A stretch of DNA of 19,979 nucleotides from an uncultured Methanosarcinales archaeon. Lineage in GTDB: Archaea > Nanobdellota > Nanobdellia > Woesearchaeales > JAGVZT01. Each line of letters starts with the position of its first letter. The stretch's first letter is position 1. The stretch lies in assembly GCA_964419615.1 (NCBI GenBank), contig CAYQPU010000032.1, positions 1-19,979 on the forward strand. Direction: 5' to 3'. The notes below the pieces were generated by a model. That model made no database searches. It worked only from the letters and a program-made list of their open reading frames with translations, and was not told where the DNA came from. Below, one piece after another: positions 16,095 to 19,979 of the stretch. Both the position numbers and the translations under genes were made by a program.

Positions 16095-16976
16095 ATGAAA
16101 AAAGAACACTGGTACATAATAATTGCAGCAATCCTTTACGGTACAATAGTTGCAGGTGGACAGTTCTTTAAAGATCTTGGAATGAGTGTCTATGAATTAT
16201 CAATAATTAGACCTGTAATTGTGGTTTTACTTATTCTTCCATTCATTATATTCAATAAAAAACTCAGATTAAAAAAACAAATGATTCCATTTTTCACACT
16301 TTATGGTCTAATTGGAAGCTTTGGAATTTTATTTCAGTATGCAGGTTTAGCATATGGTGTTCCTGTGGCAGTAATAATCTTTTTGTATTACACTCAACCA
16401 ATTTGGACTTTGTTTTTAGGTAAATTATTCTTAAAAGAAAGTATAACAAAAATAAAAATTATTAGCACAATAGTCGCACTCTTGGGTGTGTTGGTTTTAG
16501 TCAAACCATGGGACATAACTTCAGTTGGAAAACCAATTGGATTGATATTTGCCTTACTTGGGGCCATAACTGGTTCATTATGGATAATTATGGCTAGAAA
16601 ATCTGGTAAACAAAAACAACACTATGTAACTGCAACATTTAGTTATTTTCTTCCATTAATTGTTTTTATATTTCTTTTTCAACCAATCTCAAGACTGCTT
16701 TTCCAAGATCCATCAATAACAAGAATCTCATTTAATTTCCAACCAATCTTTTGGATCTATGCATTAATCTGGTCAATTATTGGAGGAATAATCCCCTACT
16801 TCTTATACTACAAAAGCACAGAAAAAATTGAAGCAGGTATAGCTCAAATAATCCTTTTAATAGAAGCAATAAGTGCAACACTCTTAGCATTCATATTCTT
16901 TAATCAACCAATAGGAATAAACATTCTAGTTGGCGGTGGGTTGATACTGGTTGCTAATTACCTTGTAGTAAGGTAA
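16095..16976 (+). CDS. EamA/DMT family transporter (10 TM)
   Basis: Two 5-TM repeats; YTQPIW..FLG.LFLKE.IT, ALLGV.VL and ILLIE...A.LLAFIFFNQ motifs. Confidence 0.9.
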   Translation: MKKEHWYIIIAAILYGTIVAGGQFFKDLGMSVYELSIIRPVIVVLLILPFIIFNKKLRLKKQMIPFFTLYGLIGSFGILFQYAGLAYGVPVAVIIFLYYTQPIWTLFLGKLFLKESITKIKIISTIVALLGVLVLVKPWDITSVGKPIGLIFALLGAITGSLWIIMARKSGKQKQHYVTATFSYFLPLIVFIFLFQPISRLLFQDPSITRISFNFQPIFWIYALIWSIIGGIIPYFLYYKSTEKIEAGIAQIILLIEAISATLLAFIFFNQPIGINILVGGGLILVANYLVVR

Positions 16977-17820
16977 CATGCTTAGGTATCCAGACTTTTG
17001 TTTCTTTCTTACCTGCACGTTTTGTGGCATACAAAGCTTGATCTGCTCTATTCACAAGATCTTCAATTTTATTATCCGAAGGAATTAACTGTGCCACTCC
17101 TAAACTAATTGAGATAGGAAGATTGAAATCAGAGTACAATTGCCTTGCAACATAGGTTCTCAACCTTTCAGCCATTAGTAAAGCTTCATGTTCAGCCATT
17201 TCTGGAAGTAAAATAACAAACTCATCTCCACCATACCTACCAAGTAAGTCTATATCTCGAGTGTTACTGTTTAGATCTTTCGCCATTGCAATTAAAACTT
17301 GATCCCCAATTGTATGTCCATGATTATCATTATATAACTTAAAATCATTAATATCAAGCATAATCACAGACAGAGGTCTTGTATGTCTTCTAGCAAGCTT
17401 ATGTGTTTCAGTTGCTTTTTCAAAAAAATATCTTCTATTATAAACTCCAGTTAATGGATCAGTTATAGATTGTTGCTTATAATGTTCAATAAGACCGACT
17501 TTTCCAGTTATATCTTCAACAGAAACTATCCAACCTTCAAATCCATTCTCACTCCTATTTCCTGAAATCTCCAAATGATGGTTTTCTTCTCTTTTTTTAA
17601 ATTTCCCATCAACTAACATTTTTTCAACTCTAAATGGTTTATTGTAAAATCTCTTAGAATTAAGTAGGTTTTGTAATCTGGTATTATCTTGTTTTAGACC
17701 AAGCATGTCATACAAAGACATCCCCAACAACTCTTCGCCAGAATATCCAACAATTCCACTCATCTCAACAGCCTGATTCGCCCATAATATCTGTCCTTCA
17801 TAATTAACATCAAGATGCAT
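16954..17820 (-). CDS. PAS-GGDEF putative diguanylate cyclase
   Basis: PAS (ILWANQA...GYS.EELLG...V.DIT), DPLTGVYNRR, DINDFKLYNDNHGHTIGD, RDID I-site (RxxD), GRYGGDEF, SLGVA, ADQALY.TK.AG. The real gene probably extends to 18121. Confidence 0.92.
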   Translation of the reverse strand: MHLDVNYEGQILWANQAVEMSGIVGYSGEELLGMSLYDMLGLKQDNTRLQNLLNSKRFYNKPFRVEKMLVDGKFKKREENHHLEISGNRSENGFEGWIVSVEDITGKVGLIEHYKQQSITDPLTGVYNRRYFFEKATETHKLARRHTRPLSVIMLDINDFKLYNDNHGHTIGDQVLIAMAKDLNSNTRDIDLLGRYGGDEFVILLPEMAEHEALLMAERLRTYVARQLYSDFNLPISISLGVAQLIPSDNKIEDLVNRADQALYATKRAGKKETKVWIPKHVTLLQGN

Positions 17821-18227: not shown

Positions 18228-18503
18228 ATGGCTCCAAAATACAAGCAAAAATGCTCAAGATGTAGTAATTATGTGGCCATAACCAGATATCAAAGGTATG
18301 TGGTATGTGAAGAATGCCAGTTAAAAGAATCAAACCAGAAAATTGAGGATCCAAAATATAAAAAACTCTTTGATATTCCAAAAGATTACTACAAAAAAAA
18401 CAAATTTCTAAGAGATATTAAATTAAATTATCTTAGATACGAGAACCTAACAGAAAATCAGATAAAAGCCTTTAAAAAGGCAGTCAAAGAAATGAAAAAA
18501 TGA
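18228..18503 (+). CDS. Small Zn-ribbon protein (CxxC-x14-CxxC), 91 aa
   Basis: CSRC...CEEC. The start was reassigned from 18066 to ATG 18228 because the upstream part overlaps the PAS extension and the promoter region. The stop overlaps the next ATG (ATGA). Confidence 0.7.
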   Translation: MAPKYKQKCSRCSNYVAITRYQRYVVCEECQLKESNQKIEDPKYKKLFDIPKDYYKKNKFLRDIKLNYLRYENLTENQIKAFKKAVKEMKK

Positions 18504-19600
18504 ATTCTTACATATATGTAGATACTAAAGAGAAGCTGGAAAGAGAATGTAAAAATTTAGAAAAATATACTGAACTTGGTATAGATCTAGAGTGTGAGAA
18601 TCATCTGCACCATTACAAAATCTGTATAGCACTAATCCAAGTATCAAGCCATGATAAAAACTGGTTGTTTGATATAATAAAACTAAAAGATTATGCACCT
18701 TTAATAAGAGTTTTAGAGAACAAATCTATCCAAAAAATATTCCATGATATCTCTTTTGATTTTCGAATTCTTAACTATCAATTCAAGAGCACACCAAAAA
18801 ACATATTTGATACACAAGTTGCAGCTAAAATGTTAGGCAAAGAAGAAATCAGCCTTCGCTCCCTATTAAAAGATTACTTTGATATTGAAAAAGAAGAAAA
18901 ATTCCAAAGAGCAAATTGGACAAAAAGACCTTTATCAGAAGGTATGCTAAGTTATGCAGTAAAAGATACAGTTTATTTAATAAAACTAAGAAACATTCTT
19001 GTTAGAGAATTGCAGCAAAAAAACAGATGGGAGTGGACAAAACAAGAATTCCAAGCACTAGAAGAACTAGATTTCACATACAAGGATCCTGGATTTTTTG
19101 ATATGCATGGAATTGTAGGAATCACACCAAAAGAAAGAGCAATACTCAAAAGATTATATCACCTTAGAGAAAAACTAGCAAAAAAAGTTAACAGACCTGT
19201 ATACTTTATCATGAACAATAAGCAGATGAAGCAAATTGCGCAAGAACCACTGAAAACAAAAAAGCAGTGGCAGTCTTTGAGAAGAGTGCATCCAATAGTA
19301 AAATCTGAGATAAGACAATTTATGGATGCTGTATCAAAAGGAAGCAAAGAAACAGTTTTCATGCCAGTAAAAGAAAAAAAGAAATTCACACCTGAGCAAA
19401 GATCGATATATATTGCTTTAAATGAAGTTAGGGACAAGCTTTCAGAAAAGCTTGACATTAAAAAACATCTTATTTTAAGCAAGGGCCAAATGCAGCAAAT
19501 AGCATCAACTGGCAAGCTTGACAGTCTAAGAAACTGGCAAAAAGAGCATTTAATTAGTGCTGCAGGTAAAAAGCTTAAACTGAAATTACATCTCAATTAA
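18500..19600 (+). CDS. rnd: Ribonuclease D-like 3'-5' exonuclease (DEDDy) with HRDC domain(s)
   Basis: GIDLE (ExoI), ALIQVS, KIFHD (ExoII), FDTQVAA..LG, NW.KRPL...MLSYAVKD (ExoIII), and HRDC-like RE.LAKK.NRP.YFIM. Confidence 0.88.
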   Translation: MNSYIYVDTKEKLERECKNLEKYTELGIDLECENHLHHYKICIALIQVSSHDKNWLFDIIKLKDYAPLIRVLENKSIQKIFHDISFDFRILNYQFKSTPKNIFDTQVAAKMLGKEEISLRSLLKDYFDIEKEEKFQRANWTKRPLSEGMLSYAVKDTVYLIKLRNILVRELQQKNRWEWTKQEFQALEELDFTYKDPGFFDMHGIVGITPKERAILKRLYHLREKLAKKVNRPVYFIMNNKQMKQIAQEPLKTKKQWQSLRRVHPIVKSEIRQFMDAVSKGSKETVFMPVKEKKKFTPEQRSIYIALNEVRDKLSEKLDIKKHLILSKGQMQQIASTGKLDSLRNWQKEHLISAAGKKLKLKLHLN

Positions 19601-19618
19601 CAAAAACCTTTTTATATA
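19601..19618 (+). promoter_or_regulatory. BRE + TATA for tRNA-Gly
   Basis: CAAAAACC-TT-TTTATATA, ending 22 nt before G1 of the tRNA. Confidence 0.6.
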
Positions 19619-19660
19619 CTGTAATATTCCAGAACCTTATGCGTCGGTGGTCTAATGGCT

Positions 19661-19752
19661 ACAAACTTTTAAGAAAAGTTTGATCAAAACAGAGGCGGCA
19701 TGCGCTCGTAAAGCTCGCTTAGCCCCCTGCTGGTCATAAATGTTTGCCATAA
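19661..19752 (+). other. 92-nt D-loop (20a/21) BHB intron
   Basis: Perfect central helix ATGG/CCAT, bulges CT|A and AA|A, outer helix CAAAC/GTTTG. Confidence 0.9.
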
Positions 19753-19769
19753 ATGACTCCGGCCTTCCA

Positions 19770-19813
19770 CGCGTTAAGATCAAAGATCCACTAGATCTTT
19801 GCTTCGCAAAGAT
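19770..19813 (+). other. 44-nt canonical (37/38) intron
   Basis: Removal restores the anticodon loop. Central helix CTTC/AAAG with one C-A mismatch; internal hairpin CAAAGATC-CACTA-GATCTTTG. Confidence 0.87.
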
Positions 19814-19834
19814 AGCCGGGTATCCGGGTTCAAA

Positions 19835-19921
19835 TCGACCTTTTGCCGCTTCGCTGAAAAGCTCGACCAAAAATGGCGTCTTCGCCTTTGTCGAATCCGC
19901 TTTGCAAAAGAGTCTTGAAAG
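19835..19921 (+). other. 87-nt T-loop (59/60) BHB intron
   Basis: Central helix TTCA/TGAA (19916-19919), bulges AA|T and AG|T, outer helix GACCTTTTGC/GCAAAAG(A)GTC. Confidence 0.9.
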
Positions 19922-19979
19922 TCCCGGCCGACGCACTTTTTTTGGTCAAAAAATTTAAATAAACCTTCAACTTTATAAT

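Follow-up and report, generated by a model that had tools for sequence, protein, structure and literature searches.

Introduction

The closest described phenomenon to the one reported here is the transposition of introns between tRNA genes of the Thermoproteales, in which transposed paralogous introns bounded by bulge-helix-bulge (BHB) motifs have been described (Sugahara 2008; Fujishima et al. 2010, as summarised in the relevant passages of PMC4090602), and in which, according to the passages on intron counts of PMC8450103, tRNA genes carry 0.84 introns on average and the richest genome holds 71 introns in 46 genes. With regard to the origin and spread of protein-spliced archaeal tRNA introns, the Thermoproteales case showed that introns spread, but not how. 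Here, we describe a tRNA-Gly(UCC) gene interrupted by three introns, located near the end of a stretch of 19,979 nucleotides (nt) of DNA (contig CAYQPU010000032.1 of assembly GCA_964419615.1, hereafter the window) from an archaeon of the order Woesearchaeales. The locus offers a clean, dated example, since it combines in one gene an apparently old intron, an intron common to the sister genus and a probably freshly copied intron; the likely donor family of the latter is identified in the same genome, and intron-less orthologues are found elsewhere in the order.

As in the Thermoproteales, tRNA genes of this genome contain up to three BHB introns at canonical and non-canonical sites, near-identical introns are found in non-orthologous tRNA genes, and their presence or absence differs between close relatives; near-identity together with patchy presence implies gain by copying. 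In contrast to the Thermoproteales, which belong to the Crenarchaeota, the host is a member of the DPANN/Woesearchaeales, the density is higher, at about 2.0 introns per detected gene, and a single alpha-type EndA gene was detected in place of an alpha/beta pair. Moreover, the introns concentrate on two universal loops (the finder used here searches only there), and many of them are long (T-loop median of 87 nt and maximum of 191 nt) and modular, with conserved structured cores.

Within DPANN, disrupted tRNA genes together with an alpha4 or epsilon2 EndA have been reported in ARMAN/Micrarchaeota (PMC3239211), and the relevant passages of a survey that applied tRNAscan-SE to one Woesearchaeota genome report more tRNA gene disruption and incomplete predicted tRNA sets in DPANN lineages with an alpha4-type EndA (Kaneta et al. 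2018, PMC5829648). The genome analysed here resembles these cases, as portrayed in those passages, in its multiple non-canonical introns, its simple EndA content and a tRNA set that standard software cannot complete. The layout which the initial annotation of the window had presented as unusual for a DPANN tRNA is real, but disrupted tRNA sets had already been flagged in general terms in the same passages, a Woesearchaeota genome included (PMC5829648). The passages from Kaneta et al. (2018) contain no long paralogous intron families, no such gene layout and no recent intron gain, and a full-text literature search returned no paper in which families of long, modular introns are described from tRNA genes of Woesearchaeota. 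The part of a recent Asgard study considered here describes no general way in which introns arrive and gives no support for copying between tRNA genes. Judged by that part, the two cases share about two intervening sequences per tRNA gene, many of them missed by annotators, as well as repeated gains and a placement at BHB-competent sites, whereas copying between tRNA genes is directly visible in the present genome, at 92% identity. The probable recent copying of intron 3, the conserved module of intron 1 and its presence in the sister genus, and the age of intron 2 are what is new at this locus.

Results and discussion

Structure and origin of the tRNA-Gly(UCC) gene

Joined in silico, the four exons of the gene (20, 17, 21 and 14 nt; Table 1) yield a 72-nt molecule which ARAGORN calls tRNA-Gly(tcc) with a full cloverleaf; removal of the inserts leaves a tRNA of the RF00005 type with the anticodon UCC. 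The introns of 92, 44 and 87 nt account for 223 of the 295 nt (76%) of the gene, and the initial annotation, made from the DNA letters alone, proved correct in all the coordinates and lengths that it gave for a triple-intron tRNA-Gly(UCC). It had also anticipated that automated pipelines would miss the tRNA and call spurious open reading frames (ORFs) in its place. In fact, in the unspliced gene ARAGORN finds nothing, with or without its intron option, and none of 4227 Rfam models matches, either at the gathering threshold or at E<=1, while on 8 contigs in JGI/IMG an ORF of 94 amino acids (aa) antisense to the gene has been called as a protein, one without a Pfam family. Taking into account the evidence discussed below, we place at roughly 90% the probability that this locus of a Woesearchaeota-type (DPANN) archaeon is its functional tRNA-Gly(UCC) gene, present in a single copy and with three BHB introns of different histories.

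The genome of 1.48 Mb has a G+C content of 33% and contains an archaeal small subunit (SSU) rRNA. Among the 80 closest contigs kept by a search with EndA, most are titled Candidatus Woesearchaeota or Nanoarchaeota archaeon, and some others bear automatic labels that are evidently wrong; the titles agree with the DPANN origin that had been considered probable from the window.

Orthologues in related genomes

In order to compare the gene with its counterparts, we used a custom intron-aware tRNA finder based on the acceptor stem, U8, A14, C61 and the T-arm, which allows one intron in each of three loops, sets the boundaries by BHB score and has the spliced product checked with ARAGORN. In what follows G000 denotes this genome, G001 a member of the same genus, G004 a member of the sister genus in the same family and G012 a member of another family. 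When applied to the corresponding loci, the finder recovered the Gly(UCC) gene in all 20 relatives of the same order. Six of them (G005, G010, G016, G026, G027 and G036) have an intron-less 72-mer, which in G005 is 96% identical to the spliced G000 product (3 differences in 72 positions), and the four intron-less genes that were scanned score 66-68 bits on the Rfam tRNA model (67 bits for G005), with a cut-off of 29. The remaining relatives display zero to three introns of 13 to 157 nt in the same loops. The junctions stand far above chance, given that the intron-less genes of 72 nt correspond to the spliced product and that the same sites are occupied where relatives have introns.

An RNase D-like gene is located directly upstream of the Gly(UCC) gene in G000, and likewise in G001 (72% aa identity) and G004 (53%), and therefore the three loci are orthologous; this synteny, together with the intron-less orthologues that score on Rfam, ties the locus to recognised tRNA genes. 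In addition, the pair 27-43, which spans intron 2, is C-G in G000 and T-A in both G001 and G004, a compensatory change. The orthologues of G001 (G001:C50:2038-2176, L015/L159), G003 and G006 harbor a short D-loop intron of 19-23 nt at 15/16 instead of 20a/21, and consequently two D-loop sites are in use among orthologues of one family. In the unpublished genome G006, on which no conclusion rests, the introns measure 20 nt in the D-loop, 15 nt in the anticodon loop and 71 nt in the T-loop.

Intron 3 is probably a recent copy

The T-loop intron of the tRNA-Cys(GCA) gene on contig C21 of the same genome is 92% identical to intron 3 over all 87 nt (BLAST; alignment A1). Further T-loop copies were found by BLAST in Gln(CUG) on C2, in Ile(GAU) on C13 and in one unassigned tRNA on C13, with identities that depend on the alignment for Gln(CUG) (83-91%, 91% by BLAST) and Ile(GAU) (78-90%), and a fragment of the family lies inside the T-loop intron of Gln(UUG). 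Near-identical introns are therefore present in tRNAs of different identity within one genome. Related introns occur in Ser(UGA), Tyr(GUA) and Cys(GCA) of G001, and none of the subfamily was detected in G004, G002 or G003, so that among the five genomes searched it is confined to the genus. Its members share a conserved 5' hairpin and a core hairpin, in which six pairs have changed on both sides; in the core hairpin of the Gly copy, one pair is disrupted.

The Gly(UCC) genes of the congener G001 and of the sister genus G004 have no T-loop intron, and intron 3 thus differs in presence between close relatives. Because its 92% identity to the Cys copy exceeds that of orthologous introns between G000 and G001 (78% for the Cys intron and 77% for Gly intron 2), and because neither G001 nor G004 has it in Gly(UCC), intron 3 was probably copied into Gly(UCC) after the split between G000 and G001. 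The direction and the mechanism of this copying are what we infer from the comparison. Alternatively, intron 3 could be ancestral in Gly(UCC) and have been lost independently in G001 and G004, the 92% identity being then the result of gene conversion between resident T-loop introns. The 59/60 site is filled in many relatives by unrelated introns of 14-157 nt, so its occupancy may be old and the sequence replaced, and recombination could be supported by the 5' and 3' ends, which are conserved in all members of the family. Nevertheless, this course of events would take two losses and a conversion instead of a single gain, G004, G002 and G003 yielded no T-loop intron of the subfamily, and we regard it as unlikely. 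In both scenarios, sequence was transferred between tRNA genes once the two congeners had separated.

Introns 1 and 2 and a module shared with other introns

At the site of intron 1, G004 harbors a homologous intron of 91 nt, with 81% identity from exon 1 through exon 3. Judging from this alignment, intron 1 is common to the sister genus, and it carries a conserved, structured module (GGCGRCAT, a variable hairpin, AGYCCCCT) that also occurs in other introns. A pattern search found the module at 3 sites in G000 and in 6 of 61 Woesearchaeales genomes, and the reversed pattern used as a control gave no match in those six genomes. R and Y vary in concert in G000, in G004 and in most of the copies, and from one copy to the next the apical hairpin is exchanged as a whole. 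The other sites in G000 lie on C26, in a T-loop intron and in an anticodon-loop intron, which belong to two tRNA-His candidates. Elsewhere, the module is found in the T-loop intron of Gly(UCC) in G003 and in the D-loop intron of Arg(CCU) in G050, the latter being the one case in which the finder placed a copy in a tRNA intron among the 27 copies outside G000. Two distant Woesearchaeales genomes, G060 with 23 copies (e.g. L142, L146, L139 and L140) and G024 with 6 (e.g. L125, L128 and L134), hold them within longer repeated non-coding stretches that match no Rfam family. The genes flanking the module at the scanned loci are ordinary, encoding TruD, a lipid synthase and a TIM-barrel protein. On account of its many copies in G060, the module was also considered as a piece of an IS200/IS605 omega-RNA and rejected as such, as the flanking ORFs at L146 and L125 contain neither a transposase nor a TnpB domain and no Rfam family is matched.

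Intron 2, by comparison, is a plain hairpin intron with homologues of 44-45 nt in G001, G004 and G012, and on this distribution it is old, common beyond the family. Two of the three introns of Gly(UCC), as far as their similarity to other introns indicates, belong to families that have been copied among the tRNA genes of this genome.

One may speculate that the long introns of the D-loop and T-loop form a family of autonomous, protein-less mobile RNA elements of Woesearchaeales, a doubtful proposal that we put forward tentatively. Each element would itself supply half of the central helix of the BHB, as a complement to the universal D-loop or T-loop, and could therefore enter any tRNA while relying on the EndA and RtcB of the host, for example by means of circular intron intermediates and reverse splicing. 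If so, the module would have a function of its own, such as protein binding or the promotion of insertion, and such a function would explain the 23 copies in G060 and the 6 copies in G024.

Splice junctions and splicing enzymes

Under the archaeal rule, which sets the cut behind nucleotide 2 of each 3-nt bulge, the three junctions all display two 3-nt bulges, a 4-bp helix between them and flanking helices, and the BHB geometry proposed for each of them in the initial annotation is therefore present, with one imperfection apiece. At the junction of intron 1 the central helix is complete (4 of 4 bp, ATGG of the D-loop with CCAT of the intron) and the inner helix has 5 bp; the outer helix is weak, being the 3-bp D-stem behind a U13.U22 mismatch. 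The outer helix of intron 2 is the 5-bp anticodon stem and the inner helix has 3 bp, while in the central helix, formed between positions 32-35 and AAAG, 3 of 4 pairs are made and C35.A is mismatched; most orthologues have a perfect GAAG partner at this position. Intron 3 combines the 5-bp T-stem as outer helix and a complete central helix (4 of 4 bp, TTCA/TGAA) with an inner helix that begins with one C.U mismatch and continues with 3+6 bp.

Folded without constraint, the 295-nt precursor reaches a minimum free energy (MFE) of -105.1 kcal/mol (z = -5.3). In this fold a near-BHB, its central helix 5 bp long, is present at the T-loop junction; the BHBs of the D-loop and anticodon junctions form under constraint only. 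The rod-like fold of intron 1 includes a 5' arm for which two downstream copies of the same 5-nt word are available as partners, the adjoining one leading to a local hairpin and the one at the 3' end to the inner helix of the BHB. When G000 and G004 are compared, the arm shows an A-to-G change and both partners show the matching T-to-C change, and the same layout of an arm with two partners is seen in members of the long intron family. This arrangement could represent a conformational switch, the footprint of a nested insertion or templated copying.

Both enzymes expected for the splicing of BHB introns are encoded in the genome. EndA is specified by one gene on C3 (L001:1474-2133, minus strand), an ORF of 219 aa with the N-terminal and catalytic domains (PF02778 and PF01974 together), whose closest solved relatives are the alpha subunit of N. 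equitans (best PDB match) and the EndA of M. jannaschii, and RtcB by one gene on C1. No second endonuclease-like gene was found in the genome, even at E<=10. An ORF of 347 aa (L001:446-1489, minus strand, on C3) extends over the stop of the EndA gene, with an overlap of 16 nt, and probably belongs to the same transcript; it has no Pfam family and no PDB relative, and on that account it could not be called a structural subunit.

Two other kinds of RNA were considered for the inserts. A group I or group II ribozyme core was not detected, no Rfam family at all being matched at 19560-19979 at E<=1, and the inserts measure only 44-92 nt. Introns may also encode C/D box sRNAs, as in the tRNA-Trp of Haloferax, with a C box RUGAUGA and a D box CUGA; this possibility was rejected, as there was no Rfam match, inspection of the three introns by eye revealed no C box, and a look for C/D boxes in them gave none.

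Is the locus the working tRNA-Gly(UCC) gene?

Transcription would probably run from the TATA-like box upstream of the gene, the spacing of which agrees with an archaeal promoter, to the T-run beginning at 19937, giving a precursor of about 295 nt. The D-loop, the anticodon loop and the T-loop would each pair with the short complementary stretch near the 3' end of their intron, forming the three central helices described above, the single EndA would cut within both 3-nt bulges of all three junctions, and RtcB would join the four exons into the 72-nt tRNA, to which CCA would be added afterwards. GGA represents 45% of the glycine codons in long open frames, and therefore tRNA-Gly(UCC) should be indispensable. 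The initial annotation had pointed to a separate, intron-less Gly(UCC) gene, together with a lack of spliced reads, as what would overturn its interpretation. No second Gly(UCC) gene was found in the assembly, which is 99.4% complete: starting from any YUUCCR anticodon loop and requiring G+C-rich stems, the filtered search left this locus and one implausible candidate of 773 nt on C15. The gene is thus apparently the only one of its kind in the genome.

Several points weigh against a functional, single-copy gene. None of the three junctions is a flawless hBHBh', given one imperfection in each. When the precursor is forced into the three BHBs and the cloverleaf stems its energy is -94.8 kcal/mol, about 10 kcal/mol less stable than the MFE fold, chiefly owing to a local hairpin of 9 bp into which the 5' arm of intron 1 can fold instead of the inner helix of the BHB. 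The sole EndA gene detected is of the simple alpha type, and alpha-type EndA is classically regarded as strict for the canonical BHB, according to the passages on specificity of PMC5829648. The finder sees introns in three loops only and could miss a divergent second Gly(UCC) in an assembly of 64 contigs, and the splicing of the precursor is itself predicted from the features described above.

The locus might in principle be a dead tRNA gene disrupted by insertions of repeat elements, the working Gly(UCC) lying in an unassembled region. The inserts do belong to multi-copy repeat families, the assembly is fragmented, and contig C32, which ends with the window, stops 44 nt past the gene. However, the exons are intact and as close to the intron-less orthologue as stated above, every insert lies exactly at a BHB-competent position, a promoter-like box and a T-run are present, and no second candidate was found; moreover, 13 different tRNA genes share the three-intron layout and cannot all be dead, which makes this explanation very improbable. 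That the gene is a chimera assembled from repeated intron sequences is weaker still and can be practically dismissed, for even though an overlap of exactly 55 nt between C32 and C40 at the 3' end of the gene marks a break in the assembly graph, all 295 nt are identical base for base, next to the same upstream gene, in seven JGI metagenome contigs from seven different samples, two of which continue into the C40 sequence, and an assembly artefact is therefore excluded. The JGI samples in which the locus occurs are 3300009320, 3300009128, 3300007510, 3300007511, 3300009106, 3300009373 and 3300009105.

The same 55 nt (Table 1; loci compared include L157 and L158) indicate that C32 and C40 abut, and the two JGI contigs that span the join run into a NUDIX gene. 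In two other JGI contigs the sequence diverges completely right after the discriminator base, and the 3' end of the gene is therefore a strain-level rearrangement or integration breakpoint.

Intron load of the tRNA genes in the genome

Standard tools detect few tRNA genes in this genome, namely 10 by ARAGORN and, by Rfam, 10 above threshold and 14 at E<=1. In contrast, the intron-aware census gave 34 credible tRNA genes with 67 introns (1.97 per gene), 14 in the D-loop, 28 in the anticodon loop and 25 in the T-loop; these counts refer to three loops only, genes with stem mismatches were missed (two were found by eye) and some of the isotype calls by ARAGORN are doubtful. Three introns are present in 13 of the 34 genes, among which Gly(UCC) ranks fifth by intron load. 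Accordingly, of the view that long introns in three loops make this tRNA unusual, the triple layout stands, but within its own genome the gene is ordinary, four others being more heavily loaded, for instance tRNA-Arg(CCU) with introns of 169, 64 and 140 nt; it is a typical gene of an unusually intron-laden genome. Since standard finders detect 10-14 tRNA genes in a 99%-complete genome, and since a fictitious protein has entered public annotation at this locus, claims of missing tRNAs in DPANN should be read with care.

The window contains a second interrupted tRNA gene, which in its spliced form is Arg(GCG) by ARAGORN, with a 12-nt intron at 37/38 and a T-loop intron of 147 nt that belongs to the long structured family. 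Another case, a tRNA-Ala(UGC) with two introns, lies at C1:8735-8860, after the SSU rRNA. The SSU rRNA match itself (G000:C1:6953-8592, L002) spans 1640 nt against a model of 1478 positions, and the 16S gene therefore probably carries an insertion or intron.

Features and neighboring genes of the window

Table 1. Positions of the gene, its parts and other features in the window.
Feature	Positions	Strand	Description
S-adenosylmethionine synthetase gene	5646-6806	+	bacterial/eukaryal type; three S-AdoMet_synt domains
tRNA-Arg(GCG) gene	6870-7102	+	second interrupted tRNA gene
Diguanylate cyclase gene	16954-17820	-	PAS and GGDEF domains; GGDEF E = 1.8e-44
RNase D-like gene	18500-19600	+	3'-5' exonuclease and HRDC
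TATA-like A/T-rich box	19610-19618	+	centre about 27 nt upstream of tRNA position 1; read from the sequence
tRNA-Gly(UCC) gene	19641-19935	+	four exons and three introns
Exon 1 (tRNA positions 1-20a)	19641-19660	+	acceptor 5' strand, U8, D-stem 5' strand, most of the D-loop; matches intron-less orthologues
Spurious 94-aa ORF	19655-19936 (also given as 19652-19936)	-	antisense to the tRNA gene; from the ORF list, JGI/IMG protein
Intron 1 (92 nt; D-loop, 20a/21)	19661-19752	+	rod-like fold; conserved hairpin module at the tip
Conserved module of intron 1	19694-19728	+	found by pattern search
Exon 2 (positions 21-37)	19753-19769	+	D-stem 3' strand, anticodon stem 5' strand, anticodon UCC
Intron 2 (44 nt; anticodon loop, canonical 37/38)	19770-19813	+	simple 7-bp hairpin intron
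Exon 3 (positions 38-59)	19814-19834	+	anticodon stem 3' strand, variable loop, T-stem 5' strand, T-loop
Intron 3 (87 nt; T-loop, 59/60)	19835-19921	+	member of the genus-restricted intron subfamily
Exon 4 (positions 60-73)	19922-19935	+	T-stem 3' strand, acceptor 3' strand, discriminator A; CCA not encoded
Overlap with C40:1-55	19925-19979		end of C32 identical to start of C40
Run of seven T	19937-19943	+	directly 3' of the discriminator; likely transcription stop

Among the protein-coding genes of the window, those for the S-adenosylmethionine synthetase and the RNase D-like protein look bacterial-type in this DPANN archaeon. The diguanylate cyclase gene with PAS and GGDEF domains is likewise found here in an archaeal genome, and it also neighbors the tRNA-Gly(UCC) locus in the JGI contig L157.
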